From an uncultured bacterium (lineage in GTDB: Bacteria > Patescibacteriota > Minisyncoccia > Minisyncoccales > Staskawiczbacteraceae): a stretch of 64,000 bases of DNA. The DNA is taken from assembly GCA_963835045.1 (NCBI GenBank), contig CAWIDW010000005.1:63210-127209 (forward strand), read 5' to 3'. The first letter of the stretch is position 1, and each line of letters opens with the position of its first letter. Shown piece after piece: positions 1 to 33,145 of the stretch. The notes beneath the pieces are model-generated. The model was given only the letters and a program-made list of their open reading frames with translations, was not told the origin of the DNA and made no database searches. Both the position numbers and the translations under genes were made by a program.

Positions 1-92
1 CTCGGTCGGTTGCTTTTTCTGGTGTTGGTTCATTTTCCATAAACCTATTATACATAAATTTGTAAAAATCCCAAAATCGGGTTAAAGTGAAG

Positions 93-130
93 CCAATATA
101 GCGGTTCTAACTGCTTCTAACGCCCACTGC
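93..130 (+). repeat. 38-nt repeat, copy 1 (left island boundary)
   Basis: ccaatatagcggttctaactgcttctaacgcccactgc; 36/38 identical to copy at 4480-4517. Confidence 0.9.
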
Positions 131-163
131 AATTTATTGTGCGACAAGTTATTTTAATTTTAT

Positions 164-209
164 AAAAAAAGAGCCGAGTTGCACCAGGGGTGTTTTCTCG
201 GCTTTTTGA
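164..209. terminator. Bidirectional rho-independent terminator
   Basis: Stem agccgag (172-178) / ctcggct (197-203), flanked by an A-run upstream and a T-run downstream. Lies just past the stop of the minus-strand gene ending at 245. Confidence 0.6.
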
Positions 210-244
210 GTTTATTTGAGACTTGCGAATCTTTCGCGAAGTCC

Positions 245-1300
245 TTATCTCGCCTTAGGACGTTCGGCAGTTAAGATCGCCTTGAAGGACGTGAGAGGTT
301 CGTCACGACGCCAAGCATTCCATGCTTGGATTGACCAGCGAAACATTTTCTCTGGTTCGACTGATTTGCTTTGTGAGCGCTTGCCCTTTGAGCTGTCAAT
401 ACTCAGCTTGCAGGTCATTAGTTGGTTGCGGAGTTTGAGGCGAGGATCGTTCTTGCTGGCCATTCCCGTACCCTCGCGAACTGAGTCCCAAAAATCTGCC
501 GAAGGTTTAACCACTTTTTCAAAGGTGGTAAACATGGCGCCGATTACCGGTGACCGCCGCATCCAATCTACCGAGCTGATGGAAAAAGTGCTAAGGTAGG
601 CGACTACGGTGTTGACCAAGTTGGCATCTTCGCCTTGCATTAAGAATGCGATCTCATCCCCATCGTGTCGTTTGCGTTCGCTGGAATTGTCCCATTTGTA
701 AAAACTGAAGCCGTCGCTCATTGTCTTGATGTCGGTTGGCTTGAGGCTTTTAAACTGGTTTGTCCCAGCCAAATGGGCGGTGATGACATTGGACTTGGTT
801 CGAGGGGTACCCCGGTCTATCGTGGCGTACAAGAGTCGCATATCTTCACTGGTCTTGGCTCTGTATTTTGCCAAGACCACTTTTCCTGGGCATTCGTACT
901 CGCTTGGCATGTAAATCCTGGCCCAGGAGGTATGCTGACCGTTCATACGAAACTCAGTGCCACCGGGATAGTCATCAACTTTTTCTTCGCAAACACAGGT
1001 CATGAGACGAACGAGCTCGGGTCGAAACGTTCCTTGTTTCATGCATCGGTTAAGGTAGGTAACGTGGCCGTCACGGAGAGGTCGCTCGCCGATGAATTTG
1101 GGATGTTCAAGCATTTCCCTTGACAGTTTTTCTGTCAGATCGACTTTGCGTTCCTGTTCAAGGACGACTCCTCTGCCCAGGGACGTAACGTCCAACACTT
1201 CAGCTTCTGTGGGAACTAATCCCGAGAAACGCTTCGAAGTTGTGAAAGTTTCGTCCATCTCGAAAGCGTGGTTGGCGTCGGGTGTTGTGTTCACGGTCAT
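245..1300 (-). CDS. ParB/sulfiredoxin-fold (DGQHR/DndB-like) domain protein
   Basis: ORF 245..1348; start set to ATG 1300 because AAGGAG lies 7 nt upstream. ERPLRDGHVTYLNRCMKQGTF ... FRMNGQHTSWA fits the ParB/Srx N-terminal pattern (..DGQHR..A). GC-richer than flanks. Confidence 0.5.
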   Translation of the reverse strand: MTVNTTPDANHAFEMDETFTTSKRFSGLVPTEAEVLDVTSLGRGVVLEQERKVDLTEKLSREMLEHPKFIGERPLRDGHVTYLNRCMKQGTFRPELVRLMTCVCEEKVDDYPGGTEFRMNGQHTSWARIYMPSEYECPGKVVLAKYRAKTSEDMRLLYATIDRGTPRTKSNVITAHLAGTNQFKSLKPTDIKTMSDGFSFYKWDNSSERKRHDGDEIAFLMQGEDANLVNTVVAYLSTFSISSVDWMRRSPVIGAMFTTFEKVVKPSADFWDSVREGTGMASKNDPRLKLRNQLMTCKLSIDSSKGKRSQSKSVEPEKMFRWSIQAWNAWRRDEPLTSFKAILTAERPKAR

Positions 1301-1425
1301 GATTTGACTCCTTGTTATCAAAGGGCTTGTGCGTCTTTTGAGAATCAATCCGCGAACATACGCGATTTGATATAGAGGAATAGACGCGCTTCCTAGTAGG
1401 TCGATATTATCATATATAATTACTT

Positions 1426-1442
1426 TGTCAATAGTATTGACA
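1426..1442. promoter_or_regulatory. Perfect 8-1-8 palindrome (candidate operator) overlapping the -35 box
   Basis: tgtcaata g tattgaca, exact inverted repeat in the divergent intergenic region. Confidence 0.6.
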
Positions 1443-1466
1443 TAAATATATAATATATGTTAGAAT
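1437..1466 (+). promoter_or_regulatory. Sigma70-like promoter of the island operon
   Basis: TTGACA (1437-1442), 18-nt spacer, TAGAAT (1461-1466). Confidence 0.55.
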
Positions 1467-1567
1467 CAAAAATCAGTTAACGAAAGCAATTTTGAATTGC
1501 TTCTTAATTGTCGATCGTCGCCCTTTAACAATCAGAGGTGAGTCTATTATCGAAAGGAGGTATTTTC

Positions 1568-1870
1568 ATGACCAAGCCACAAGAAACCGCTCACACTAGC
1601 AGTGGTGTCATTCGAGCAGTCGTGGGTAAGGTCAGAGGCGAAGGTCAACATCGGTTTGCCATCGCCTATCTTGAGAAAGGAGCCACACATCCCACTATCA
1701 GTCAAAGGGAGAGCATCACATTCTCTCTTACTGACTGGCAAGGTGAACGAGAGCCACGAAAAGAGCAGGTTGTTCTGCTTGAAGGAGTTCAATTGTTTGC
1801 CAGAGGTTGGCGAGCTATTGTCGCTCGTCCGATTACTCTGGAGTCACAAGCCACAAGAAAGGAACAGTAG
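1568..1870 (+). CDS. Hypothetical 100-aa protein, first gene of island operon
   Basis: ATG 1568 preceded by GAAAGGAGG; stop lies 2 nt before the next start. Confidence 0.5.
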   Translation: MTKPQETAHTSSGVIRAVVGKVRGEGQHRFAIAYLEKGATHPTISQRESITFSLTDWQGEREPRKEQVVLLEGVQLFARGWRAIVARPITLESQATRKEQ

Positions 1871-1872
1871 TC

Positions 1873-2646
1873 ATGGTGAAAGTTTTTACCGGTACTACTC
1901 AAGAGTGTCTTGAGCACTTTTCCCAGGGGAATCGCTTCAATACTCCTGAGAGAGAAGCATGCAAACTGCGAAATGCAGTTTCCGAGTTTTTTGGCATTAA
2001 CCATCAAACTGGATACGGATGGTTCAGTCAGTTTCGTCTCCCAACCGGAGAGAATCTTTTACGACTTCGATTTTTTCTGTCTCTGTTAGGCTACGAAGTC
2101 GTGGAAAGAAATGTCGTACCGAAAATTCTTCGTGAGTTTTCCGACATGGTTTGCCTTCGCACACTTTCGTTTGAGGAGGCAGCTTATCTTATTGGTGGCA
2201 CCGCTGTACCAGCCGTTTTATTGGATGTGTCATTTGGTCGCTACGGCGTCTCCGGCGAGAGGGAAGAAAAGATTACCGAACTGGTAGAACTCTACAAAAA
2301 GGAAGCTACCGTCAAGCTTGAAGAGTGGAAAACCAAGATTGAATCATTCGGTCTTGCCAATTTCTCCGCTATCAAAATAGTGCCCGCACAAACACCCGAG
2401 TCTTCTAAGGAAGATTCAAAACCGGTGCTTGCTCGGTTAAATGGCGAGGTTGTCAAGACCTTGGCCCACCTGATTCTGGCGATTAAACCCTGGGCAGAAT
2501 TGCTTCTTTCAGAGGAGTTTTCTCCTGAACAGCGACAGCAACTTCGTGAGTTGACTGCCACCAACGGACGTTCAAACGCGGTGTTCGAAGTGTCCAACGC
2601 TCTTAATCGCCTGTGTAGCGAAAGGGCACGTAAGGAAATTCAGTAG
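1873..2646 (+). CDS. Hypothetical protein with two XRE-like helix-turn-helix segments
   Basis: ATG 1873 directly after the upstream stop. AVSEFFGINHQTGYGWFSQFRLPTGENLLRL and LSFEEAAYLIGGTAVPAVLLDVSFG look like HTH motifs (by eye only). Confidence 0.45.
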   Translation: MVKVFTGTTQECLEHFSQGNRFNTPEREACKLRNAVSEFFGINHQTGYGWFSQFRLPTGENLLRLRFFLSLLGYEVVERNVVPKILREFSDMVCLRTLSFEEAAYLIGGTAVPAVLLDVSFGRYGVSGEREEKITELVELYKKEATVKLEEWKTKIESFGLANFSAIKIVPAQTPESSKEDSKPVLARLNGEVVKTLAHLILAIKPWAELLLSEEFSPEQRQQLRELTATNGRSNAVFEVSNALNRLCSERARKEIQ

Positions 2647-2675
2647 CCACAAGCCACAAGAAAGGAACGGTGTCT

Positions 2676-4385
2676 ATGAGTACTACAACTGCTCGGATCG
2701 ATTTTCACAAGGGTGAAACCCTGCTGAACTTGGCGAACACCTATCCCAAGCTCAGCGATGTTCTCTTGGAGCTGGTCCAGAATGCGTTGGACGAAAAAGC
2801 CAACAGAATCTGGATCGAGGTTGACTACAAAAACCGCAAGGCGCACGTACAAGACAACGGCCAGGGAGCTTCGATTGATAAGTTCAACGGCGCTCTGGGG
2901 TCGGTTGCCAAACCCGGTCGCAAGGAAAAGGGGAGTCTTGGCCAGTTTGGCATAGGACTCATCTCTCCTCTCGGCAAGTGCAAAAAGTTCTTCTTCGTTT
3001 CCTGTCCCCAACCCCATGATTCACTCTACCAAGAGTGGCTTCTGGAAACCGATCACATTAAAGCTCAGCAGCACGACATTTCCATTCCCACGAAAGTTCG
3101 CCAGGACATCATTTTTGAAAAGAAAGTGCCTGGCAAAAACAGCGTGGATTGGAGGTCGCGGGCCCAGCTGATTGATTTCACTGAAGATCAATTTGTCAGT
3201 CAACTTTCCATGGATGGATTGGTCGGCGGCATACAGGATCGGTATTCAGGAGTCATGCGCAAAAACAACGTGGTGATTTCTGTGGTGATCAAGGATGAAA
3301 AAGGCAAAAAACATCAACGGGACAATGTGACGGCACTCGAGTTTCTGGGTCGCAAACTCCTGGAACAAGAATTGCTTGATTCGGGCGGAGGCAAAGTTCT
3401 TTTCCGTTTGTTCATTGCCAAGAAAATTGGCAAGGGACGACAACGGCAGGGCAAAGTATCGATGGGGGTAATGGGAAACGATTTCCGATTTCCTTTCGAA
3501 TACTTTGCACGATCAGCAGCCTCGCTTCTGAAACCCGACGTGGTTGACGCGCTGTCAAAAGGTCTTTTCGAAGGAGAAATTCTTTCCGAAAAGGCCAGAC
3601 TTCACCGAGATCGCCAGACTTTTGAGAAGGATGATAACTGGATTGGCTTGTGCATTGCCATTGAAGAGTGGTTTGATAAGTTCGGCAGGGAGCACACCAA
3701 AGAAGCGCAACAGTCAAACGAGGACGAGCGCCACCAGGAACTGGGTCTTCGATCCATGAAAGTGGTGGAGGACATGCTCAGGGACCCATCAAGCGCCTCG
3801 TTACTGGCGGTTCTCAAATCGTTTGAACGGGGAACTGTTGGTAGTGGACACACTGATGTTCCTGCTAGCAAAGTCTACGGTCAGCAGGATGAAAAGGCTT
3901 TGTCGGTGGATGGTAATGTGGGTGAATCGAAATCGAAAAAGGATGATGGCGAACCCCCCCCAGACCCTACCAAACCTCCGGAGCACAAACCTGATCACAT
4001 GCCCCTTACAGTCGCTGGCCCCAAAGGCAAGCGCCGCAAGGAGGTTCGTGGTCATAGCACAGGCCTGGGGTTCGTGTACGATGCCATGGATGGCTCACCC
4101 GACCTTTGGAAACTAGATATCAAGAACGGACTCTTGCATTTTAATATCCGACATCCCTTGTGGATGGCTTGTGATAGTAAAAGTGACTTGGCGCTCATGA
4201 AGCTTCAGGAGCTCGTCACTATCCAGGCACTTACGCTTGAAATTATGCCAGAAGGATTGAGGCATTGTCAGCGTCAGGCGTTTGATGAACACAATGGGGC
4301 CATGGTTACATGGATCCTCAACAGTGACAAGGCGCGGGGAAGTATTCCCGCCGCCAAGAAGAAACCCGCAAAAACTAAGCCCTAA
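2676..4385 (+). CDS. GHKL-superfamily ATPase (HATPase_c_3 / MORC-Hsp90-MutL-like) with long C-terminal region
   Basis: N box LELVQNALDE, G1 box VQDNGQGAS and G2 box GQFGIGLIS within the first ~110 aa; 569 aa. Confidence 0.7.
   Translation: MSTTTARIDFHKGETLLNLANTYPKLSDVLLELVQNALDEKANRIWIEVDYKNRKAHVQDNGQGASIDKFNGALGSVAKPGRKEKGSLGQFGIGLISPLGKCKKFFFVSCPQPHDSLYQEWLLETDHIKAQQHDISIPTKVRQDIIFEKKVPGKNSVDWRSRAQLIDFTEDQFVSQLSMDGLVGGIQDRYSGVMRKNNVVISVVIKDEKGKKHQRDNVTALEFLGRKLLEQELLDSGGGKVLFRLFIAKKIGKGRQRQGKVSMGVMGNDFRFPFEYFARSAASLLKPDVVDALSKGLFEGEILSEKARLHRDRQTFEKDDNWIGLCIAIEEWFDKFGREHTKEAQQSNEDERHQELGLRSMKVVEDMLRDPSSASLLAVLKSFERGTVGSGHTDVPASKVYGQQDEKALSVDGNVGESKSKKDDGEPPPDPTKPPEHKPDHMPLTVAGPKGKRRKEVRGHSTGLGFVYDAMDGSPDLWKLDIKNGLLHFNIRHPLWMACDSKSDLALMKLQELVTIQALTLEIMPEGLRHCQRQAFDEHNGAMVTWILNSDKARGSIPAAKKKPAKTKP
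3954..3961 (+). repeat. Poly-C(8) homopolymer inside the GHKL ATPase CDS
   Basis: gaa cccccccc aga, encoding EPPPDP. Confidence 0.9.
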
Positions 4386-4404
4386 AAAAGCTCGGTCAAT
4401 CAAA

Positions 4405-4441
4405 CCCCGGTATCATAGTAATATGGCACCGGGGCTTTTTC
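4405..4441 (+). terminator. Rho-independent terminator after island operon
   Basis: Stem ccccggt (4405-4411) / accgggg (4428-4434) followed by cttttt. Confidence 0.6.
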
Positions 4442-4479
4442 TTTGCATTGAAAATTGCCGAAAAAATGCTACACTGATA

Positions 4480-4517
4480 CCAATAAAGTGGTTCTAACTG
4501 CTTCTAACGCCCACTGC
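4480..4517 (+). repeat. 38-nt repeat, copy 2 (right island boundary)
   Basis: ccaataaagtggttctaactgcttctaacgcccactgc. Confidence 0.9.
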
Positions 4518-4619
4518 CGGGTATCATTCGGCATCCGGCTTCGCCCACAGGCGGAGTCGGTGGCACGAATGGGAGCCGAGCCAGGCGCGGTCTTGTGCCT
4601 GGCCAGGTCGCAAATTACC

Positions 4620-4847
4620 ATGAAATTCTATGATGTGTACGTCTTGCGCAATAAATTAAAAAATTTTATCTATGTTGGTTATTCTGAAAATCTGAAAGAG
4701 AGAATTCAATATCACAATGGTGGTTATGTGAAATCAACAAAATTTTACATCCCGCTAGAACTTATTCATTACAAAGCGTATCGAAATATAACGGACGCAA
4801 AAAGAAGAGAAGTCTGCGCCTTGTTGCGTCCGCAGACTATCACATAA
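4620..4847 (+). CDS. Small GIY-YIG (URI-domain) nuclease family protein, atypical C-terminus
   Basis: MKFYDVYVLRNKLKNFIYVGYSENLKERIQYHNGG matches the GIY..YIG..R..N pattern. The usual ..KRREKYLKSG.. tail is replaced by AKRREVCALLRPQTIT. Confidence 0.6.
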   Translation: MKFYDVYVLRNKLKNFIYVGYSENLKERIQYHNGGYVKSTKFYIPLELIHYKAYRNITDAKRREVCALLRPQTIT

Positions 4848-5040: not shown

Positions 5041-5199
5041 GCTTTTCTCCTCTTGGTCATGGTTAAAAACAATACCTTGACTATATATTACATAAGTTTT
5101 TAAAAAATACCAGCCCCGTATGCAAGTTTATTCACAATTGCAACTTGTAATCTTGCCTGGGGTTTTGTATTATAAATAATAAGTTCTGTTTTGGCAACA

Positions 5200-7122
5200 A
5201 TGCTAAAGACCATGAAAAAATACTTTCAAAAATCATTCAATAAAAACCAGTTCGTTTTTCTAAAAATATTACTGGTGGCCTGTTGTGTTACCGTCGCCGG
5301 TTTGTATACTCATTCCATTGCCTATGCTGGGAGTATCACCCCGTCCGATTCTCCGTCCAACGACATGTATACCATGGAACAAGTCTACCAACAGCTCCAC
5401 AGCGGCACAACTACTTCTTCTCCATCCGGATCATTCATTGAGCCTAGTTCGTCTCCGGCTCCAACCATGCACACGCTCAGCGATGTATACAATGGCTTTG
5501 CTACTGACGTTGCAGCCACCAGCGGCACCGCCCCATCAAGCGTGCTTTCAGGAAATACCTTTTTTGACACCGCCGGAACTACTCGAGGCACCACCTTTGG
5601 TCCCGTCGCAGGTACTATGGCCAACAACGGCAGTTTCGCTTTGACCTGCAGCGCCACCAATCAATCGGTTACTGCTGGATACTACACTGGTGGCACGTTG
5701 ACCGGCGATGTGAATCTTGTTACTGGTAACATTAAAAATGGTGCGACTATATTCGGAGTTAGTGGTAGCTCTAAAGTTCTTGACACCACTGCCGGCACGG
5801 CAACAAATGGAGAAGTTTTATCCGGCGATATTTGCTACTCCAATGGTTCAACGATTACCGGCACCATAGCCACCGGATCCAACGTCACCGGTTCCAACGG
5901 CTCGCTTTCCTTCAGCATTCCCACTGGATACTATTCGGGCAACACCTGTACGGCCAGCGACACTAATTTAGCAACCGGCAATATAAAAAGCGGCACCACC
6001 ATCTTCGGTGTGGCCGGCAGCAGTAAGGTCTTAGACACCACCTCAGGCACCGCAGTAGCAGCCAATCTAATCTCCGGCAAGGTGGCCTATTCTAACGGAT
6101 CAACAATCACCGGCACCATGCCGGATCAGACAGGATTGAATGTCGCTTCCACCGCTCAGTCCCAGTCCAGCGGAGTCAACTACTTTACCGCTGCCCAGGG
6201 TTACTACGACGGCACCGCCAAGGTTTCCGCCACCGATGCCCAGGTAGCGGCGTTGAGCGCTTCCCTTACGGCAGGGCATGTGGCATCGGGAACCACCATC
6301 TTCGGAGTTGCCGGCACCGGCAACCTGGTTACCGGCACCGGCACGGGAAGCGCCGCGGCCGCCGGCCAGATCCTTACCAACTATTATGCCTGGGGTTCCA
6401 CAGGTTCAGTTATCCAGGGTTCGGTAGCCACCGGCTCCAACGTCACCGGTTCCAATAGCTCGCTCTCCTTTTCCATCCCCACCGGATATTATTCGGGCAA
6501 CACGTGCACGGCCAGCGACACTAACCTGGTGGCGGGAAACATCGATACAGGGGTAAGTATTTTTGGAGTAAGCGGCACACTGTTAGCCAATGAATTTAAC
6601 GGCACCAGCGGTTCTTTTACCGGCGGCAGCCAGGCCAACGGCGGAGCGGATGATTACAATAATGGCTCCGCCTCTCCAGGCAACACTTATTCCACTACCT
6701 GGACCACCTGCAATTCCGGGAACAGCTACTGCGGCACCAGTGACAGTGGGGCGGCAATGAAAGATAATGCCACCGGCAAGATCTGGAGTTATCCTTGCAA
6801 TGGCTCCGCCTGCGCCACTTTTTCCAACAGTTCTCCCGCCACCTATTCCTGGGACAATTCTGGCGCCAATAACAGCAGTAACACCGCCAGCCAGCTTTGC
6901 TCCGGCCACGCGGGCTGGTCTTTACCGCACCAAAAACAGCTAATGCAAGCCTATATCGACGGTTCCTACGGCAACCTAGAAGGCACTGGCGTCGCTCGCT
7001 ACTACTGGTCTGCGACGACTGTCTCCAACAGTACCTCCAACGCGTGGTACACCAACCTGTCTAACGGCAGCACCACCAACGCTGGCAAGACTAATGCTCT
7101 CTACGTTCGTTGCGTGCGCTAG
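5200..7122 (+). CDS. Secreted repeat protein with C-terminal DUF1566 / C-type-lectin-like domain; candidate DGR target
   Basis: N-terminal signal/TM segment and three internal ~60-aa repeats (..GSNVTGSNGSLSFSIPTGYYSGNTCTASDTNL..). C-terminus GWSLPHQKQLMQAY...YYWSATTVSNSTSNAWYTNLSNGSTTNAGKTNALYVRCVR matches the DUF1566 pattern. Start 5200 or 5212 is uncertain. Confidence 0.7.
   Translation: MLKTMKKYFQKSFNKNQFVFLKILLVACCVTVAGLYTHSIAYAGSITPSDSPSNDMYTMEQVYQQLHSGTTTSSPSGSFIEPSSSPAPTMHTLSDVYNGFATDVAATSGTAPSSVLSGNTFFDTAGTTRGTTFGPVAGTMANNGSFALTCSATNQSVTAGYYTGGTLTGDVNLVTGNIKNGATIFGVSGSSKVLDTTAGTATNGEVLSGDICYSNGSTITGTIATGSNVTGSNGSLSFSIPTGYYSGNTCTASDTNLATGNIKSGTTIFGVAGSSKVLDTTSGTAVAANLISGKVAYSNGSTITGTMPDQTGLNVASTAQSQSSGVNYFTAAQGYYDGTAKVSATDAQVAALSASLTAGHVASGTTIFGVAGTGNLVTGTGTGSAAAAGQILTNYYAWGSTGSVIQGSVATGSNVTGSNSSLSFSIPTGYYSGNTCTASDTNLVAGNIDTGVSIFGVSGTLLANEFNGTSGSFTGGSQANGGADDYNNGSASPGNTYSTTWTTCNSGNSYCGTSDSGAAMKDNATGKIWSYPCNGSACATFSNSSPATYSWDNSGANNSSNTASQLCSGHAGWSLPHQKQLMQAYIDGSYGNLEGTGVARYYWSATTVSNSTSNAWYTNLSNGSTTNAGKTNALYVRCVR
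6995..7119 (+). other. Candidate DGR variable region (VR) at the extreme 3' end of the target gene
   Basis: Position and ..YWS..AW..G..K..YVRCVR scaffold are typical of DUF1566-type VRs. No matching template repeat found in the window. Confidence 0.35.
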
Positions 7123-8423
7123 CCCTGGGAATGGAACATTAATTTTTTACCCGGCTCACTGGTTCGCCTCGGTTTCCGAAATTGCTTTTTTATCAAAAAG
7201 CACCTCATATTTATATCTTTGGGCTCCAGGTATTTTTTAAGACGCTGAAAGCGTTTTTCCCATAAATGGTTCCTTAATTTATAGGTATTGGCATGACCAA
7301 AATGGCCGTAATAGGAATTAACGGTAGCGAGCATTTTTTGGAGCAGTTCGGGCGGTGGCTGGTATTTTGTAAAAATAAATTCCAACTGTCCGTGGTCGGT
7401 TGCGGAATTTGAATATTTTTGCAAAGTGTTATTGAAATGAAAGAGTTTATTTTTAAAAGTTTTAACAATCCTTTGGCGGATTAAAACGTCGTCGGGTTTG
7501 ACGATATAGCCGAGCCAGTCAATGCCAAGGTCGGTTGTTTGAAGGATTTCCTTATTGGGATTTAGTTCCAGCTTTAGCCGTTCTTTGAGAAATATGTTTA
7601 TTTTGTTTCGCCATTCCAATAATTCGCTTTTGCTGCTGGCGAGGAGCAGGAAATCGTCAACATAACGCAGGTAATATTTGATTTTTAACGTGTGTTTTAC
7701 GAATTGATCAAGTTCACTAAGGTAAACATTGGCAAAAAATTGGCTGGTAAGATTTCCGATGGGCAAACCCTGACCTTTAGAAACGTGAAACAATGATTTA
7801 TGGGGCGGAATTTTGGCAAAAAGCGCCCGATTGCCTTTACTGGTAAAGTTTTCTGTCGGATTGTTGAAAATAATCAGCTTGGACAACCAGAGGATTTCCG
7901 GATTGGCCACATATTTATTTATGAGATCAAAAAGAATGTCCTTTTTCAAACTCATGAAAAATCCGCGGATATCAAGGTGGAGATAAAATGCTTGACGGCG
8001 ATGATTTGCGGTGATCTTGCCAAGATATTTTTGCAAATCATGCAAGGATCGGTGGATACCCTTGTCCTTGCGGCAGGCATAGGATTGTGCAATGAACATT
8101 GGTTCAAAAACCGGTTCCAATAAATTGTAAAGCACATGGTGAACGACCCGATCCCGAAAGGTGGCTGCAAAAACCTCGCGCAATGACGGTTCTTCCACGA
8201 CAAAACAAATCGAGCGGCCGATCGTATAGCTGTGTCTTTGCAACTCCCGTTCCAGTTTCAGAAGTTCCGATTCAAAATGTATTTCAAATTTTGCCGCGTG
8301 ATACGTTTTACGTTTGTACTCCCGACAGTCCAAATAGGCCCGGTAAAGGTTTTTAAAACTGTAAATATTACAACCACCCTTTTCTCGGTTTTGTGTGGTT
8401 ATATGTGTGTACAAGTTTTTCAA
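7119..8423 (-). CDS. DGR-type reverse transcriptase
   Basis: FRDRVVHHVLYNLLEPVFEP, LPIGNLTSQFFANVYL (the [ILV]GxxxSQ motif characteristic of DGR RTs) and YLRYVDDFLLL (YxDD). Its stop overlaps the target gene stop by 4 nt (ctag). Confidence 0.8.
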   Translation of the reverse strand: MKNLYTHITTQNREKGGCNIYSFKNLYRAYLDCREYKRKTYHAAKFEIHFESELLKLERELQRHSYTIGRSICFVVEEPSLREVFAATFRDRVVHHVLYNLLEPVFEPMFIAQSYACRKDKGIHRSLHDLQKYLGKITANHRRQAFYLHLDIRGFFMSLKKDILFDLINKYVANPEILWLSKLIIFNNPTENFTSKGNRALFAKIPPHKSLFHVSKGQGLPIGNLTSQFFANVYLSELDQFVKHTLKIKYYLRYVDDFLLLASSKSELLEWRNKINIFLKERLKLELNPNKEILQTTDLGIDWLGYIVKPDDVLIRQRIVKTFKNKLFHFNNTLQKYSNSATDHGQLEFIFTKYQPPPELLQKMLATVNSYYGHFGHANTYKLRNHLWEKRFQRLKKYLEPKDINMRCFLIKKQFRKPRRTSEPGKKLMFHSQG

Positions 8424-8453: not shown

Positions 8454-10172
8454 ATGAAACAAAAGATAATATTTAAAAGTTTAATTTTTATTATTACAGC
8501 GTTTTTTATAAACAGCGTTTTTTTGTCTTTGGCTTTCGCCGCCAGCAACACTACCGGCTACGCCTGGTCGGAATCTTCCGGTTGGATAAACTTCAATCCT
8601 TCCGGCCAAAATACACAGGTGGCAAGCACTGAGCTTACTGGCTACGCCTATGGAGAAAACACCGGCTGGATATCATTGAATTGCCTAAACGATACTTCCT
8701 GTGCCACCGTTAACTATGGGGTGGTCAATGATGGACAAGGCAACCTTTCGGGCTACGCCTGGTCACAATCTGCGGGCTGGATAAATTTTAATCCAACCAA
8801 CGGCGGAGTAAAAATCAGCAGCCAGGGTGTTTTTTCCGGCTACGCCTACGGCGAAAACACTGGTTGGATTTCTTTTAATTGTACCAACGACAATTCCTGC
8901 GCCACCGTAAGTTACGGCATCACCACCACCTGGAGCCCGTCAAGTTCCGCCCCTGCTCCTACCCCCGCTCCCGTCACTTCCGGCAGCGGAGGCGTTTCAC
9001 TTTTAATAGGAATCCAAAGTCATCCCTCAACTCCGCCTACCCCGAGTGTTCCTCCTAATCCTCCTTATGTAGCCCCTCCTGTCATTGCCGCCCTTCCTCC
9101 CTTCGCCCAAGACGTAGCCTTCTTTGCCCAAAGGATTCCACAGTTTAACCAGGCGCTCAAGAATGTTGGCATTAATGTTACCAAATTGACCGATATCAAA
9201 AGGGTTGCCTCCGTCCACTGGTTTTTGCCCGGTCTGACACAACTGGCAGTTTCTTCCAAGGCAACTTCAAAAACTCCCGCGCCTCCCGTGACCAAGGGAG
9301 TTCCGGTGGCGCAATTGACCTCCAGTCAAAAGAAAAGTATCCCTGATGATATCGTCTTCGTTAAAACCAGTGCGGGAACGGTAGACTACGCCACCAATCT
9401 TTCTTTTGACCAGCAAGGCAAGGGGATTCAGCAAGTTTCTACTATTGCCAACAAGCCGCTAGAGCTGGTTATCAAACCTGATCACCCCGTCACCTCCATT
9501 CAAGGATTTTTAACTTTGACAAAATTAGATGTCTCCCAGGCTCCTTCTACAAATTCTGTGGCTTCAGCTCCCTCTAGCTCCCAATCCATCGCCGAGCTCA
9601 TCACTCACTATCTTACTGCTTCTATTTCAGACTACCGCAACACCCAAATTAATCAGCCGCTCTCTCAAGCCGATCCTTCGCTGCTGGTTCAGAAATTTAC
9701 CTACCAAAATATGGGCAACGGTATTTACCAAGCTAGTATTACTGCTCCTTCCGCTGAAGGTCAATACGAAGTGGTGACTTCCATTTATTACCAGGGCAAA
9801 ACCCTCCCACAGCAAGAGACCCGACTGACCATCGTGGTGGATCCGGAGGGATATGTGTATACCAATGTTCCCGAAGGCCAGGTGAGAATTAAATCAGCTG
9901 CTGTTTCTCTTTACTGGCTCAACCCTGCTTCGGGCAAGCAACAGATCTGGCCGGCTTCCCAATTCTTACAACAAAACCCCCAAACTACGGATGTCACCGG
10001 ACGATACGCGTTTTTGGTCCCTCCCGGCACCTACCAGCTTAGGGTTTTAGCAAATAACTACCAAAACTACACTTCAGCTCCACTGGTAATCCAGGAGGAC
10101 AACAATGTTGTAATGGATGTCCAACTGATCGCCAAGAAGAAAAACTTGCTGCAGCAATTGTTGGGGAAGTAG
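8454..10172 (+). CDS. Secreted protein with GYAWSxxxGWINFN repeats and C-terminal carboxypeptidase-regulatory-like domain
   Basis: Signal peptide; four copies of G-Y-A-[WY]-[SG]-E-x-x-G-W-I-[NS]-[FL]-N; Pro-rich linker; C-terminal TDVTGRYAFLVPPGTYQLRV. Confidence 0.6.
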   Translation: MKQKIIFKSLIFIITAFFINSVFLSLAFAASNTTGYAWSESSGWINFNPSGQNTQVASTELTGYAYGENTGWISLNCLNDTSCATVNYGVVNDGQGNLSGYAWSQSAGWINFNPTNGGVKISSQGVFSGYAYGENTGWISFNCTNDNSCATVSYGITTTWSPSSSAPAPTPAPVTSGSGGVSLLIGIQSHPSTPPTPSVPPNPPYVAPPVIAALPPFAQDVAFFAQRIPQFNQALKNVGINVTKLTDIKRVASVHWFLPGLTQLAVSSKATSKTPAPPVTKGVPVAQLTSSQKKSIPDDIVFVKTSAGTVDYATNLSFDQQGKGIQQVSTIANKPLELVIKPDHPVTSIQGFLTLTKLDVSQAPSTNSVASAPSSSQSIAELITHYLTASISDYRNTQINQPLSQADPSLLVQKFTYQNMGNGIYQASITAPSAEGQYEVVTSIYYQGKTLPQQETRLTIVVDPEGYVYTNVPEGQVRIKSAAVSLYWLNPASGKQQIWPASQFLQQNPQTTDVTGRYAFLVPPGTYQLRVLANNYQNYTSAPLVIQEDNNVVMDVQLIAKKKNLLQQLLGK

Positions 10173-10383
10173 GATGCATAATAGAACAGCGAAAGAAATT
10201 AAACAGTTTGCAGGGGGGGTAATTTCAGAGATTTCACCAAACTGGAAACTCATATCAGGTTTTTGTAGACATAAAAAGGACGGACATACGAAATATCCGT
10301 CCCAAGTTTAGTGTCTTCATTATAGCAGTTAACGAGGCCGTGTCAATAGGGCTGAAAATGGCCTTTGGAATACTAAACCTAGG

Positions 10384-10420
10384 CCAATAAAGTGGTTTTA
10401 ATAGCTTTCAAAGCCCGCAG
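10384..10420 (+). repeat. 38-nt repeat, diverged copy 3
   Basis: ccaataaagtggttttaatagctttcaaagcccgcag; the first 14 nt are identical to copy 2, then ~9 substitutions. Confidence 0.6.
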
Positions 10421-10426
10421 TCTCGT

Positions 10427-11620
10427 GTGTTAACAGGGGCAAAGCTCTTGTTTTTTTGTTTTATTATTTTTATCTGGTTCTTTTTAATCTTTGGGGTATT
10501 TGATACAATGAGCGAAGTTCGTTGGGTGATAGGTTTTTTAATAACAACATCGTTGGGTGTTATGGTATCTATAAAACGGCAGTATGTTTTTAGGTTTTTA
10601 ATCGGGGTGATTTTTTTGATGGCGGCGGTGTATTATTGGCCGGCGTATCAGCGCCAGATTCCAAAGACCCGCCAAGAGTCTCAATACCAAGCTTCAACTG
10701 AAATACTTCAGACGCCGTTGCAGGCTCCTTTGACATTGGTGACCGAACCGGATGATGGTATGGCGATGGTAAAAAACCAGATAGACGGGGCCTTTAAAAC
10801 CTTGGACTTGGTTGTGTATGAATTTGAAGATCCCGAGCTTGAGCAAGCCTTAGTTGATGCAAAAAACCGCGGCGTTTTGGTGCGGGTTATTTTACAAAAT
10901 TTGGATTTTGCGGGCCAGCAAGTTAATCAGCCGGCGTACGATTTTTTAAAAAGCCATGGCGTGGCGGTGATGTGGGCGCAAGATTATTTTCCCTTAACTC
11001 ATCAAAAAACCTTAACCATAGACGGGGCGCGCTCTTTAATTATGACCTGTAATCTGGATACCCAATTTTATGCTTCAAGCCGGGATTTTATTGTAGTTGA
11101 TAGTAATCCAGACGATGTGGCTGCCATATCGGCGGCTTTTTTGTCGGATTGGAGCGGAGCGCAAGAGACGCCAGGCAATGGCCAGGATTTGGTGTGGAGT
11201 CCAGCGTCGGCTGATACTTTGTTGGCGTTAATTAATGCCAGTCAAACGTCGCTGGATATTTACAACGAAGAAATGGCCGACCCCAGAATCATTGAGGCTC
11301 TCAAGGAAGCGGCAAAAAGGGGAGTGGCGGTGAGAGTTGCCATGACTTACAACACCAGTTGGAAAGATGCTTTCAATGAATTAACATCGGCCGGCGTGAG
11401 CGTTCATACCTATGCTTCAACGTCCCGCCATTATATCCATGCCAAAGTCATGGTGGCGGATTTTCAACGGGCGTTTGTGGGTTCGCAAAATTTTTCTTTG
11501 CAATCGCTGGATTTAAATCGGGAACTTGGCATTTTAATTTCCCGCAGCGATATTGTTTCTTCCTTGGAAACAACGTTTGCCAATGATTGGCTTTCGTCGC
11601 GGCCTTACGTTATCAAATAG
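10427..11620 (+). CDS. Phospholipase D family protein (two HKD motifs; cardiolipin-synthase/Nuc-like), membrane anchored
   Basis: HQKTLTID and HAKVMVAD HxKxxxxD motifs; N-terminal TM helices. Start is uncertain (GTG 10427 or ATG 10508). Confidence 0.75.
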   Translation: MLTGAKLLFFCFIIFIWFFLIFGVFDTMSEVRWVIGFLITTSLGVMVSIKRQYVFRFLIGVIFLMAAVYYWPAYQRQIPKTRQESQYQASTEILQTPLQAPLTLVTEPDDGMAMVKNQIDGAFKTLDLVVYEFEDPELEQALVDAKNRGVLVRVILQNLDFAGQQVNQPAYDFLKSHGVAVMWAQDYFPLTHQKTLTIDGARSLIMTCNLDTQFYASSRDFIVVDSNPDDVAAISAAFLSDWSGAQETPGNGQDLVWSPASADTLLALINASQTSLDIYNEEMADPRIIEALKEAAKRGVAVRVAMTYNTSWKDAFNELTSAGVSVHTYASTSRHYIHAKVMVADFQRAFVGSQNFSLQSLDLNRELGILISRSDIVSSLETTFANDWLSSRPYVIK

Positions 11621-12826: not shown

Positions 12827-12914
12827 ATAAAATGATGAACCTTGAAAAATAAACAGCTCTTTATCGCCTTGGTGGTGGTAAATCTGTTTAAGACACTTTT
12901 TGAAGGAGGTTCCC

Positions 12915-13478
12915 GTGGAATACTCTGATTTGATGCAGGTGTTACTCGTGGTGTTGGGGATGAATGGGGCATATCTGTGCTTTATAATCAGTGCACAGGA
13001 ACTCAACAAGAGTCTGCCCTCGCGCAACTCTATCATTCCGGGTACAAATCAGAAGTTTCTGTACGTCCAGGACTTCTGGACGATGACCTACGGCGACTTT
13101 CTGGGTGTGCCGCTCGTCGTCAATGCGTTCGTGCATTTGGCGGCGGACGACATCACCAACCTTTGGTGGACCCTGGGCATTGGTATGCTCAGCACCATGA
13201 TGTTTCTTAAGATGTGCCTTGGCAAAAACCACAAGCCGGATTACGGTTTTCCCGGTATCGGCAAGATTAGTTTTGCCGGCATCTTGCACCTACCTTATTT
13301 TGGTTTCGGAATTGGTGCCAGCGCCATGTCGGCCTGGAATCTCATCATCGGTGAACTTCGCGGTCCGGTCATGTGGGTTGCATTGGCTGGCGGAGCAGTC
13401 TATGTGGGGTGCTTCGTGCTCGAGATAAGATCGGGCAACTTCGATCCACTTAAAAAAAAGGAGATACCATGTTCATGA
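12915..13478 (+). CDS. Hypothetical polytopic membrane protein (GC-rich islet)
   Basis: GTG 12915 lies 6 nt after GAAGGAGG; several TM helices. Confidence 0.5.
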   Translation: MEYSDLMQVLLVVLGMNGAYLCFIISAQELNKSLPSRNSIIPGTNQKFLYVQDFWTMTYGDFLGVPLVVNAFVHLAADDITNLWWTLGIGMLSTMMFLKMCLGKNHKPDYGFPGIGKISFAGILHLPYFGFGIGASAMSAWNLIIGELRGPVMWVALAGGAVYVGCFVLEIRSGNFDPLKKKEIPCS

Positions 13479-14102: not shown

Positions 14103-15218
14103 ATGCCAACAGAAATTCCACAGAGAGACCCAGATGCACCCAACCAAGAAGTTTTAGAAAATCAGCCTCCGGTGCCAGAAGTTCCAAATGAGCAGATTGT
14201 AACCCCTGAAGACATGAAAAATGCAGAGACTAGAGCAGATGTGGCAAGATTAGAGGAAGACATTAATCAGACTACTGCTATTGATGAACTTAAGAAATCT
14301 ATAGAAAATTCGGAAGGCCAGGTGCCTAATCAGGAAACGGTTTCAGTTGACCAGCAAGCAGAGGCAGATGAAAAGGTTTTACAAAAACGTGTTGAAGAAA
14401 TTAAGCAAAGGGCAGGCGAGATTGGCGTTGCAACACCTGGGGTAAAAGAAAGGGGAGATTGGTTAGAATCTATCCAGCGCGAGATCGATAGAATGGAAAA
14501 TACTGGAATTGGGCGCGCTCATTTGGAGGAGCTTTCGCGGCTTCTCCAGGAATTTTCAAGTATCGTGTATTCCACAAAAGCCGAACGTGGAAAGTTGGCA
14601 GAAAACATCAGACTTAAAAATGATAAGCAGGAGCAGACAAATAGATATTGGCAAGACAAAGGAATTACCGCCAAAGAGTTTCCTGATCCGGAGGTGAGGT
14701 TGCTAGAACAATTAAAAATAGAAGGAGCTTTGCCAGACGATGCATTGCTTGCTGAATTAAAAATTTCATTGCCCGATATCTTATATTCTAAAGGTGAAAC
14801 AATAAGAAATCTGGAGTATTCCATACAGCAGAAAGAGAAAGAGGCAAAAGAGGCAGAAGGTAAATATATAAAGGATGCGCCCCGCGCAAGAGATGAAATC
14901 TTAAAAGAGGCAAACCTTTTTGCGCCCAGTGAAGGAGTTGATTATCTGAGTACTTCCTATGGTAAGGCTGCGAGCGAATACTTATATGGTAAAGAGTTTC
15001 AATCAGCGCCAGACAAGAAAAAGGCTTTTGCAAATTGGCGAGATGCATATTTGACTTCTGAGAATCAGGAAAGAGACCACCAAGAACGTGTCGCAATTGA
15101 TGAGCGTGGTAAAGCGCGGGCAACACAAAAGAAAGAACAAGAAGAAGAATTGAAACAAGAAAGAGTAGCTGCGGAACAAAAAAGGAATAAGAAAAGCTGG
15201 TATCAGTTTTGGAAATAA
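14103..15218 (+). CDS. Hypothetical acidic coiled-coil protein
   Basis: Long ORF, Glu/Lys-rich, no recognisable motif. Confidence 0.5.
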   Translation: MPTEIPQRDPDAPNQEVLENQPPVPEVPNEQIVTPEDMKNAETRADVARLEEDINQTTAIDELKKSIENSEGQVPNQETVSVDQQAEADEKVLQKRVEEIKQRAGEIGVATPGVKERGDWLESIQREIDRMENTGIGRAHLEELSRLLQEFSSIVYSTKAERGKLAENIRLKNDKQEQTNRYWQDKGITAKEFPDPEVRLLEQLKIEGALPDDALLAELKISLPDILYSKGETIRNLEYSIQQKEKEAKEAEGKYIKDAPRARDEILKEANLFAPSEGVDYLSTSYGKAASEYLYGKEFQSAPDKKKAFANWRDAYLTSENQERDHQERVAIDERGKARATQKKEQEEELKQERVAAEQKRNKKSWYQFWK

Positions 15219-26476: not shown

Positions 26477-27601
26477 ATGAACATATTGAGAAACTATCTG
26501 TATCCGATTGTCACCTTGATGGGAAGCATTATCGGAGTGGGTTTTTTATCTCTGCCCTACATCACGTTGGAGGTTGGCATTTGGCCCATGCTTTTTTATT
26601 TTGTGTTCTTGACCGGAGTAGTTTTGTGCATTCACGTTATTTTCGGCAAAATTGCTTTAAAAACTCCCGATTACAAACGTTTCCCCGGATTTGTCGGATT
26701 TTATTTGGGAGACGTCGCCAAGGCCATTACTTTGGTGACGATTATCCTGGCATCCTTTGGAGGTTTACTGGTGTATCTGATTGTTGGCAGCCAATTTTTG
26801 AGCACCTTGCTCCAACCCATCTTTGGCGGTAGCGTATTTATTTACGCGATTGGCTATTTTGTTTTGGCCAGCGCCGTGGTCTACTTGAGTGTTAGGGCTG
26901 TCAGCCGAGTGGAATTTTTTTCTTTTGTCTTTTTGTTTTGCGCGTTTACGCTGATAGCCGTGTCCGAATTTTCAAAAATATCCCTGGGCAATATAGCTCT
27001 TGTCGGTCCCGCATTTTTTACTGACTGGAGAATTTTGTTTTTACCCTACGGGGCCATTATTTTTTCTTTGTGGGGGATTGGACTTATTCCCGAAGTGGAA
27101 GAAATGCTGATGGGCAGAAAAAAATTGCTCAACAGCGTGATTATTATTTCTATTTTAATTTCAGCAGCTATCTATTTGCTGTTTATTTTTTTGGTGCTGG
27201 GAATTTCGGGTACGGCTACCAGTCAGTCGGCACTGGTGGGACTGAAAGGTTTTTTGGGCGAAGGACTGTTTGTGGTGGCGATGTGCATCGGAGTGGTGAC
27301 GACATTTACTTCATTTGTTACCCAGGGACTTTTTTTAAAAAAAGTATTTGTCTATGACATGAAGTTTCCGGAAGGCGTTGCCTGGATCATAACCTGCGTC
27401 GTTCCACTGATCCTCCTGCTGGCGGGATTTAATTCTTTCATTGACCTGATATCACTGGTGGGCGGATTTATCCTTGGCATCGAAGGCATTTTAATTTTGC
27501 TGATGTATCGAAAAATTGGAGGCAAACTGATAGTCATTTACCCCTTGGCAATCGTATTTTTATTGGGGGCAGTCTACTCGGTGGTGTACTTTGTAAGATA
27601 A
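26477..27601 (+). CDS. Amino-acid permease-like transporter (about 11 TM)
   Basis: Polytopic; N-terminal GSIIGVGFLSLPY resembles the aromatic amino-acid/APC-type permease motif. Confidence 0.5.
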   Translation: MNILRNYLYPIVTLMGSIIGVGFLSLPYITLEVGIWPMLFYFVFLTGVVLCIHVIFGKIALKTPDYKRFPGFVGFYLGDVAKAITLVTIILASFGGLLVYLIVGSQFLSTLLQPIFGGSVFIYAIGYFVLASAVVYLSVRAVSRVEFFSFVFLFCAFTLIAVSEFSKISLGNIALVGPAFFTDWRILFLPYGAIIFSLWGIGLIPEVEEMLMGRKKLLNSVIIISILISAAIYLLFIFLVLGISGTATSQSALVGLKGFLGEGLFVVAMCIGVVTTFTSFVTQGLFLKKVFVYDMKFPEGVAWIITCVVPLILLLAGFNSFIDLISLVGGFILGIEGILILLMYRKIGGKLIVIYPLAIVFLLGAVYSVVYFVR

Positions 27602-27742
27602 TTTGAAATTTACAATTTGAAATTTGAAATCAATTTGAAAATCTTGAATTTGAAATGATTAAAACCCGACGTCACGTTTTCAAATTCAATTATTTAAACA
27701 TTTACGTATTGATTTCAAATTGTAAATTTTAAATTTCAAATT
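27600..27742. repeat. Intergenic imperfect palindrome, family A copy 2 (core CGACGTCACGTT)
   Basis: Outer arms aatttgaaatttacaatttgaaatttgaaatcaat / attgatttcaaattgtaaattttaaatttcaaatt; inner stem gaatttgaaa/tttcaaattc. Confidence 0.85.
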
Positions 27743-27748
27743 AACATT

Positions 27749-28720
27749 ATGTTCTGGCTTTTCTTCGTCATCATCTTTATTGTTTCTTGCCTGGTGTTGT
27801 CCTGGTTGAGTTCGCGTTTAATTAAGTCGCTGGTGGAAGTGGCCCGGTATTTGCAGTGGCGGGAATTTATCATTGCTTTTTTTGTCATGGGTTTTGCCGC
27901 GTCACTGCCCAATTTATTTGTTGACCTGCCGGCGGCGCTTTTGCACCTGCCTCAAATTTCGCTGGGAGATATTATCGGCGGCAACTTGGTGGACTTAACT
28001 TTGGCCATGGCCGTGATTATCTTTTTTACCAAAAAACCTATTTCCACCAAAAGTGAAATGATCCAAGGAAGCGCGTTTTTTACTTTTCTGATTGCCTTGT
28101 TACCGATTTTACTCATTGCCACCGGCAACGTCACCCGGGCCGACGGCGTTATTTTACTCCTGGCATTTTGTGCCTACACCTACTGGCTTTTTTCCAAAGA
28201 CGCCAGATACAAAAAAGTGTACCGATTATCGCATCAAGAAGCCGTGGCTCCCGGCAAACGTTTTGTGGGTTTTTTAAAAAATTTGGCGCAGATTGTGGTT
28301 TTGATAGTGTTGCTCTTGATCGCCTCGCAAGGAGTCATTACCAGCGCCCAGTATTTTTCCCAAAACTTAGGCATTTCACTGTCGCTGGTGGGAGTGTTGA
28401 TTGTGGCCCTGGGAAACTGTTTTCCGGAAACGTATTTTGGCCTTATTTCCGCCAGAAACGGCGAAGGCTGGATGATTATTGGCGACATGATGGGGTCGGT
28501 GATTGTCTGCGCCACCTTGGTGCTTGGAATTATTGCCATCATTTCGCCGTTTCAGATAAGCGACATGTCGCCTTTTTTGATCGCCAGAATCTTCACCATC
28601 GTCGCCGCCCTCTTTTTTATGCTCTTCATTAAAACTGACAAAAAACTCACCAAAAAAGAAGCCCTCCTTTTGCTATCCATTTACATTATCTTTTTACTTA
28701 CCGAAATTTTTATTAAATAA
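27749..28720 (+). CDS. Ca2+/cation antiporter (CaCA, YrbG-like) family protein
   Basis: Two alpha-repeat-like motifs (GFAASLPNLFVD and ALGNCFPETYFG); ~10 TM helices. Confidence 0.7.
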   Translation: MFWLFFVIIFIVSCLVLSWLSSRLIKSLVEVARYLQWREFIIAFFVMGFAASLPNLFVDLPAALLHLPQISLGDIIGGNLVDLTLAMAVIIFFTKKPISTKSEMIQGSAFFTFLIALLPILLIATGNVTRADGVILLLAFCAYTYWLFSKDARYKKVYRLSHQEAVAPGKRFVGFLKNLAQIVVLIVLLLIASQGVITSAQYFSQNLGISLSLVGVLIVALGNCFPETYFGLISARNGEGWMIIGDMMGSVIVCATLVLGIIAIISPFQISDMSPFLIARIFTIVAALFFMLFIKTDKKLTKKEALLLLSIYIIFLLTEIFIK

Positions 28721-33000: not shown

Positions 33001-33139
33001 AATTTGAAATTTACAATTTGAAATTTGAAATCAATTTAAAATAGCTAAATTTGAAATGTGTAAAACTGTCACGTTTTCAAATTTAAACATTCAATCATTC
33101 GCTATTGATTCCAAATTGTAAATTTCAAATTTCAAATTT
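33001..33139. repeat. Intergenic imperfect palindrome, family A copy 3
   Basis: The first 35 nt are identical to copy 2; core ctgtcacgttttcaaatt. Confidence 0.85.
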
Positions 33140-33145
33140 ACAGAT

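Follow-up and report, generated by a model that had tools for sequence, protein, structure and literature searches.

The 64,000-nucleotide (nt) stretch analyzed here (the window) comes from an uncultured bacterium of the Patescibacteriota (GenBank assembly GCA_963835045.1, contig CAWIDW010000005.1, positions 63,210 to 127,209). Near its left end is a block of four genes, A to D, enclosed by two copies of a 38-nt direct repeat, and this block is a real, foreign, uncharacterized module. We read it as a composite foreign island in the promoter and leader of a gene encoding a GIY-YIG protein, composed of a mobile B-C-D (BCD) module and a separately mobile, phage-derived gene A, with a role in genetic conflict that we infer from several lines of evidence; the probability of this reading is roughly 0.55. 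A first-pass annotation made from the sequence alone had singled out the block, and it described the four genes and the sizes of their products (351, 100, 257, and 569 amino acids, aa) correctly. The main features are as follows, with Shine-Dalgarno motifs abbreviated as SD, helix-turn-helix as HTH, and open reading frame as ORF.

60-130, plus strand: left repeat copy, consisting of a promoter-like TTGTAA-17-TAAAGT (60-88) and then the 38-nt repeat (93-130)
245-1300, minus strand: gene A, 351 aa, AAGGAG SD, predicted ParB/Srx-type N-terminal domain and helical domain
1568-1870, plus strand: gene B, 100 aa, AAGGAGG SD, conserved small protein
1873-2646, plus strand: gene C, 257 aa, weak XRE/Cro-type HTH at about residues 30-70 and a possible second HTH
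2676-4385, plus strand: gene D, 569 aa, ATPase of the GHKL (Bergerat) type whose middle domain is Hsp90/MutL-like
4448-4517, plus strand: right repeat copy, consisting of a promoter-like TTGAAA-16-TACACT (4448-4475) and then the 38-nt repeat (4480-4517)
4476-4847, plus strand: interrupted target, outside the island, consisting of a structured leader (4476-4619) and then the GIY-YIG ORF (4620-4847)

Direct repeats that bracket foreign DNA in the manner of attL and attR are a feature of integrative elements, and the block has such a pair. The two copies (93-130 and 4480-4517) are identical at 36 of 38 positions, as first described, and share a 28-nt exact core (103-130 and 4490-4517) that occurs twice in the window and in none of 100 shuffles. 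Ungapped similarity runs leftwards from the repeat over 67 nt at 79% identity (64-130 and 4451-4517); it decays gradually on the left and is lost abruptly at the right edge of both copies. The first-pass annotation had allowed that the 38-mer might be a common dispersed repeat. This is not the case, because exact searches for the core in 596 Gb of genome contigs and in the JGI metagenome contigs gave no match. The pair encloses exactly the genes that are led by SD motifs and richer in G+C, and the earlier view of the block as foreign DNA between copies of an insertion-type repeat is upheld.

The right 38-mer begins at approximately the predicted transcription start, and therefore the 38-mer would represent the first bases of the transcript. 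The leader that follows (4476-4619) is GC-rich and strongly structured (-67.5 kcal/mol, z -4.0), and the downstream ORF (4620-4847) encodes a GIY-YIG protein of 75 aa and has no SD motif. The C-terminus of this ORF appears shortened, and the ORF is missing from the genes called in sister assembly L001. Rfam contains no family for the 38-nt repeat or for the structured leader. A tRNA gene was considered as the integration target and rejected, as there is none near the block.

Translation signals are stronger evidence of foreign origin than base composition. The block was noted earlier as GC-richer than its surroundings, and it is (48.1% for 131-4479, compared to 42.9% for the remaining window), but the adjoining 5-12 kb is also at 48-50%; G+C content alone is weak evidence because the adjoining 7 kb or so is similarly GC-rich. 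An AAGGAG-type SD motif had been reported for every gene in the block. This holds for A (AAGGAG) and B (AAGGAGG), while C and D have only AAGGA; the accompanying claim that native genes lack such motifs is largely correct, as 44 of the 48 other long ORFs in the window have no SD-like motif. The module genes at four other BCD loci (L002-L005) also carry SD motifs, and the neighboring host genes do not. The observation therefore generalizes, because BCD loci keep their SD motifs in hosts that do not use them, and the operon has retained these foreign signals across hosts whose D sequences are more than 60% apart. The SD contrast is a simple marker of foreign genes in Patescibacteria genomes. Host genes in the window, in L002-L005, and in L008 almost never have an SD motif, and many have a TATAAT-like box within about 10-20 nt of the start codon; the position of these boxes suggests very short leaders or leaderless mRNAs.

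Protein D is a true GHKL ATPase, as had been proposed. It passes the Pfam model HATPase_c_3 (5e-11; 43.2 bits, cutoff 25), and the N (ExxxNxxD), G1 (DxGxG), and G2 (GxxGxG) boxes that place it in the GHKL (Bergerat-fold) superfamily are conserved in 61 homologues. Among the 61 sequences, E32, N36, D39, G62, G64, and R313 are invariant, and D60, G89, and G94 are nearly invariant. A structure model of D (predicted local distance difference test, pLDDT, 91.5) matched the N-terminal and middle domains of Hsp90 in Foldseek (E 1e-14, about 400-440 columns aligned) and the N-terminal domain of PMS1/MutL (E 8e-12), and the sequence profile also reaches the MutL N-terminal domain (2e-08). In the model, a transducer or middle domain follows the ATPase domain, the arrangement of the GHL (gyrase/Hsp90/MutL) subclass, and R313 is probably the counterpart of the catalytic arginine or lysine in the Hsp90 or MutL middle domain. 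The middle domain is followed by a helix of 50 residues, a disordered linker, and then a C-terminal domain that is conserved (FNIRHPLW, with N490 invariant); the C-terminal 130 residues have no match to anything known. Assignment of D to Hsp90/HtpG itself was rejected (14.5 bits for the NCBIfam HtpG model, cutoff 371, and 14.1 bits for "HSP90 family protein", cutoff 455), as was assignment to MutL (12-26 bits for the NCBIfam models, cutoffs 180-756, with only about 45 residues covered). D and three orthologues had no Pfam or PADLOC match outside residues 16-129 or so, and no DUF4263 or other nuclease domain. In PADLOC-DB 2.0, D gave only weak GHKL-core matches, to TmtA, REase_II, and MzaB, and the weak matches to the TmtA, MzaB, REase_II, and BbrUII models span just about 70 residues of the ATP-binding core.

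Protein A has a ParB/Srx-type fold in its structure model and is recognizable as such at that level only. A matched no Pfam, NCBIfam, or PADLOC model at E<=1, including ParBc, DndB (DGQHR), and DUF262, and DUF6551 was touched by only 3 of 32 relatives (best 3e-4). All 32 family members matched PHROG 5931 (unknown function), and the motifs RxNGQH, DR, and AWNAWR are invariant in the family. The model (pLDDT 86.6) gave 36 matches in BFVD at E<=1e-3, many of them to proteins described as ParB-like nuclease, ParB/Sulfiredoxin, DndB-like (DNA-sulfur-modification-associated), or DUF262/GmrSD N-terminal. The top matches in the PDB have the same fold and are not significant (best E 0.16; pNOB8 ParB-N, sulfiredoxin, PadC, SspE, and SbnI). 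The ParB/Srx (ParB-CTPase) fold is assigned to the modeled N-terminal alpha/beta domain. The earlier ParB/Srx call for A is therefore right only at fold level, because the sequence models are silent and the structure comparison is positive. Phage fusions of a ParB fold with DUF6551 are reported to bind CTP or ATP (preprint 10.1101/2025.10.10.680097). The possibility that A is a tyrosine recombinase was rejected, as the model shows a ParB/Srx domain and a helical bundle, and the Foldseek matches include no integrase.

Proteins B and C are less informative. B has the conserved pattern ITFSL..W...P...V.L......GWRA, with no relative in Pfam, NCBIfam, PADLOC, or the PDB and none detected outside its own family. 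Two XRE-like HTH segments had been claimed for C, and the data favor them only weakly: the C profile has a 41-residue match to the P22 C2 repressor (E 0.035), and Pfam HTH_3, HTH_17, HTH_23, and HTH_31 are matched at about 1e-3 in 1-4 of 15 family members, with no match for the C protein of the window. C also has a conserved C-terminal helical region. The predicted control sequences inside the block are as follows.

164-207, no strand assigned: hairpin resembling a bidirectional terminator, GAGCCGAG...CTCGGC, bordered by an A-run and a T-run and lying between the 3' end of A and the left repeat
1301-1567, no strand assigned: divergent control region with near-consensus sigma-70 promoters (plus strand 1425-1454 and 1437-1466, minus strand 1431-1404)
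1847-1868, plus strand: nucleotide motif CAAGCCACAAGAAAGGAAC directly upstream of C, found again upstream of D (2650-2671) and in part at 1573-1586
4405-4445, plus strand: terminator-like hairpin after D, CCCCGGT...ACCGGGG followed by a T-run

The -35 boxes of the divergent promoters make up the palindrome TGTCAATAgTATTGACA at 1426-1442. This palindrome was considered as an operator, and it is accounted for by the two overlapping divergent -35 boxes. The motif CACAAGCCACAAGAAAGG precedes the starts of C and D in three diverged loci (the window; L002, at 7140-7179 and 7964-8003; and L012, at 244-266 and 1005-1027), irrespective of reading frame, and it could be a translational coupling or regulatory element.

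The distribution of the genes separates A from the other three. A word-indexed search returned 63 full-length D homologues (23-63% identity), and all of those with a name are Patescibacteria (Paceibacterota, Parcubacteria, and Portnoybacteria). An exhaustive profile search at E<=1e-30 extended the family to at least 462 clusters (50% identity), all of about 550-600 aa, and the one additional named member is from Patescibacteria too. IMG/VR lacks D, as do the phages and plasmids in GenBank. Seven BCD loci were compared (the window, represented also by L001; L002-L005; L012; and the P0005 contig). C and D are adjacent in all seven and B is present in six, and the flanking genes are different housekeeping genes at each locus (peptidase M50 and a class-II aminoacyl-tRNA synthetase, tRNA-synt_2b; UDG and AlaRS; L31 and S2; a secreted-repeat protein and tRNA genes). 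Four of the loci have a divergent partner of about 200-234 aa (E-type), which is unrelated to A in the three where the sequence is readable; E-type partners belong to no known family and have no PADLOC match. L005 has no divergent partner beside BCD. A adjoins BCD only in the window, where it is divergent, and in L012, where it lies downstream on the same strand. The conserved unit is therefore C-D, usually with B, as a Patescibacteria operon, and our literature searches found no description of it.

Gene A was found at 13 IMG/VR loci and 71 metagenome loci (about 84), none of which has BCD, and it has no match in GenBank phages or plasmids. Its contexts range from clear phage genomes (with prohead protease and baseplate genes) to cellular contigs. 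A is a separate phage-associated family (PHROG 5931) that mostly occurs without BCD. The suggestion that the four genes form one system is not supported by these results, as C-D(-B) is conserved with other divergent partners.

Several of the compared loci have other features. In L004, a B homologue that was not called in the source annotation is encoded on the other strand, upstream of the gene for the divergent partner (6667-6951, minus strand). In L003, an SD-led gene of 137 aa for which no family could be named (9971-10384) is located between the BCD module and two tRNA genes (10613-10869), and it is probably part of the same foreign island. The host region directly upstream of the island in L001 (3011-4044) encodes an InPase-domain protein and a cyclodipeptide synthase (CDPS), an unusual pair for a small genome. 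In the IMG/VR contig L014 (364 kb), an A homologue has CRISPR-like arrays immediately downstream (9220-9500, 12850-13030, and 14170-14340), with repeats of about 36 nt at 65-66 nt spacing, and repeated units of 87-91 nt occur at 9028, 9625, 11093, and 12730. Distant A relatives (about 30% identity) in L017, L019, L066, L084, and L091 are preceded by a conserved gene set that includes a ThiF-family adenylyltransferase, which was tested with models, and a protein in which a JAB-like motif was seen by eye (no NCBIfam match).

Three lone A genes between direct repeats provide parallels to the insertion in the window. In L008-L011 a 36-nt repeat (26 nt exact, 1458 bp spacing) surrounds A, in L082/L083 a 44-nt repeat (1280 bp spacing), and in L035 a 37-nt repeat (1276 bp spacing). 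The smallest A cassettes are 1.28-1.46 kb and contain A only. L008, L082, and L035 share the geometry of the window, with a sharp right edge and a decaying left edge, and in L008 and L082 the copy on the element side restores the gene that was interrupted. For L008 it is the 3' end: an ABC-transporter gene takes its last codons from the right copy, and the left copy retains an alternative C-terminus and stop beside the terminator of the neighboring gene. The L008 cassette has a G+C content of 53.9%, compared to 43.5% in its flanks. In L082 it is the 5' end: the right copy begins a 57-aa ORF directly after the A stop codon, and the left copy is the stranded native start of that ORF. In BCD modules that lack A, flanking repeats do not exceed the shuffle level. 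A single crossover with a circular donor carrying an imperfect copy of the target would produce the geometry of the window and the A cassettes; the geometry does not specify the agent, which may be a site-specific enzyme, A itself, or host recombination.

We propose that the island in the window entered by such a single crossover, Campbell-type or site-specific, into the promoter and 5' leader of the GIY-YIG gene. The incoming DNA would have brought its own imperfect copy of the promoter and about the first 38 nt of the leader. Because the donor carried this copy, the target gene would stay expressed and the 38-mer would be duplicated like attL and attR. The island would consist of two separable units, the B-C-D operon that circulates among Patescibacteria and A. 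The operon is predicted to be transcribed from strong divergent sigma-70 promoters. D, with an intact ATP site and a middle-domain arginine, may act as an ATP-driven dimeric clamp of the gyrase/Hsp90/MutL class; C may be an HTH DNA-binding protein that directs D to DNA, and B a small accessory protein of the module. A would be a phage-type ParB/Srx-fold protein, either an NTP-binding DNA-binding switch or a nuclease, that stands here in place of the usual divergent partner of about 200 aa. BCD may serve genetic conflict, as defence or for the element's own maintenance; its sporadic distribution, variable loci, foreign expression signals, and fold classes point to such a role.

Several observations weigh against the composite-island reading. 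None of the four block genes is recombinase-like by sequence models or structure comparison, and there is no integrase or other recombinase, replication gene, or phage structural gene in the block, as stated in the first-pass annotation, nor in the 5.3 kb upstream. Exact searches of genome and metagenome contigs with the 28-mer found no empty site or circular junction, and the collections searched contain no close relative carrying the site. Searches for an empty site with the flanking-gene protein, the GIY-YIG ORF, and the downstream 572-aa protein returned only the same sample (ERR11630394). Both repeat copies resemble promoter and leader elements, so they may be a duplicated regulatory element. 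No nuclease or other effector domain was recognized in B, C, or D, and in PADLOC-DB 2.0 the A, B, C, and E-type proteins had no match and D matched at the generic GHKL core only, in agreement with the first-pass annotation, which did not recognize the arrangement as any named system. The neighborhoods of BCD are made up of housekeeping genes and are not defence islands. Tight repeats are enriched around A with modest significance only: they flank 3 of the 53 A genes that could be tested and 1 of 228 control intervals from these loci (hypergeometric p about 0.02). These statistics are suggestive only, because repeats of at least 30 nt from other causes (paralogues, regulatory repeats, and CRISPR-like arrays) occur about 10 times in 0.9 Mb of comparison loci, and restoration of gene ends is the stronger argument for insertion. 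Finally, A in the window is inverted relative to the repeat polarity when compared to the one-gene cassettes, so the cassette architecture is not rigid.

The best-surviving alternative, which we consider rather unlikely, is that BCD is not an immune module and has a regulatory, maintenance, or stress function, for example as an Hsp90-like chaperone with an HTH regulator or as a device for island persistence, with A as a selfish or regulatory passenger. Hsp90 chaperones are indeed the best structural matches of D, strong divergent promoters together with an HTH protein are typical of self-regulated modules, and the lack of a recognized effector domain and of a defence-island context is in keeping with this view. 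However, D scores far below the HtpG and MutL family models (14-26 bits, cutoffs 180-391). An accessory mobile function fits BCD better than a chaperone function does, because the module is sporadic, sits at variable loci, and has kept foreign translation signals.

That the four genes work together as a single defence system, with the ParB/Srx protein as sensor or nuclease and the GHKL ATPase as motor, is improbable. The occurrence of A next to BCD in two gene orders suggests selection for linkage, the closest homologues of A and D are at similar identity (58-63%), and both proteins belong to fold classes that recur in defence systems. Against this, five of the seven BCD loci have no A and carry an unrelated partner or none, the other A loci in viral contigs and metagenomes (about 84) are without BCD, and A can also be found on its own, as a one-gene cassette, and within phage genomes.

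A further proposal combines two bolder claims and is doubtful to about the same degree. It holds that the A family is the mobility factor of integrase-free cassettes (1.3 kb alone, 4.4 kb with cargo) that enter gene ends, duplicate 36-44 bp, and supply a replacement end, and that BCD, with an Hsp90-class clamp ATPase at its core, is an immune or exclusion system specific to Patescibacteria. The weakest alternative, that the 38-mers belong to two paralogous promoter and leader elements, the left one making a short RNA, in an old resident region, is very improbable: plausible -35 and -10 boxes do lie just upstream of each copy, with the repeat beginning at the expected transcription start, and repeats of at least 30 nt with other origins are found at the frequency given above, but SD usage and G+C content change exactly at the repeat, the left copy is directly followed by a terminator and an antisense gene, and the same geometry rebuilds coding ends at two other A cassettes.

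Two features elsewhere in the window were also recorded. A reverse transcriptase gene (RVT_1; 7119-8423, minus strand) adjoins a gene for a 643-aa repeat-rich protein, and the pair spans 5191-8423. By eye, the C-terminus of the 643-aa protein resembles a DUF1566/C-type-lectin-like variable region, which together with the reverse transcriptase would make a pair like those of diversity-generating retroelements; a search of the whole window revealed no template repeat that matches the target gene's 3' end. An A/T-rich intergenic repeat of about 150 nt (segments of 41, 40, and 32 nt) is present at 27600-27750 and 33001-33140, where it brackets 5.4 kb with about six genes.

Patescibacteria (the candidate phyla radiation, CPR) account for a large share of bacterial diversity and have few recognized defence or mobile-element systems. 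The present analysis defines a sizeable, previously undescribed operon family that moves between CPR genomes with its own SD signals. The recurrence of the A family in tiny repeat-flanked cassettes that rebuild the interrupted gene hints at a route of insertion without a known recombinase.

Comparison with known systems places the island near several of them. Small integrative elements that enter gene ends and supply a replacement end share with it the direct repeats of 36-44 nt and an element-side copy that restores a promoter and leader, a 5' end, or a 3' end; they differ in that no tyrosine or serine recombinase or transposase is in or near this element. The ParB-related, ThiF-related cassette (PRTRC), in which a ParB-family gene adjoins ThiF-family and JAB-like genes, was rejected, as it is not found in the window and only distant A relatives adjoin ThiF-like genes, in a gene set that resembles PRTRC and falls below its model cutoffs; the PRTRC_ThiF model scored 31.5 bits (cutoff 144.75), and the distant A relatives have no match to the PRTRC ParB model. 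A shares the ParB/Srx-CTPase fold with DndB, DUF262 proteins (GmrSD and SspE), and phage ParB-like proteins (DUF6551-type), and its NGQH motif occupies the place of DGQHR or DGQQR in these families. In contrast to the DndB and DUF262 systems, there are no dnd or ssp genes and no HNH or DUF1524 nuclease here, and A occurs in one-gene cassettes with repeats of 36-44 nt.

D resembles Hsp90/HtpG and the MutL N-terminal domain in its N-terminal and middle domains, with R313 probably placed like the catalytic arginine of Hsp90, whereas its C-terminal domain is different and its gene shares an operon with that of an HTH protein, within a mobile island. CapK/CapS, a GHKL kinase and a repressor of immune operons (PMC13373217), was rejected because CapK is of the anti-sigma-kinase type and CapS is a STAS protein, giving a different architecture. 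Shedu type I-D/paraMORC3 was also rejected, because D has no C-terminal DUF4263 PD-(D/E)xK domain; the architecture of VcSduA has been described (PMC12137116). More broadly, D has no DUF4263/PD-(D/E)xK or other nuclease domain, the partner genes of the conflict GHKL systems are absent here, and D shows none of the additional features that define VcSduA-type Shedu, MzaB, TmtA, or BbrUII-type enzymes. What it shares with MORC/paraMORC-type and other conflict GHKL ATPases (GHKL-Shedu VcSduA, MzaB, TmtA, and the BbrUII/HgiDII restriction enzymes) is an N-terminal Bergerat ATPase followed by a middle domain that resembles a clamp, a size of about 570 aa, and a place in a small accessory island.

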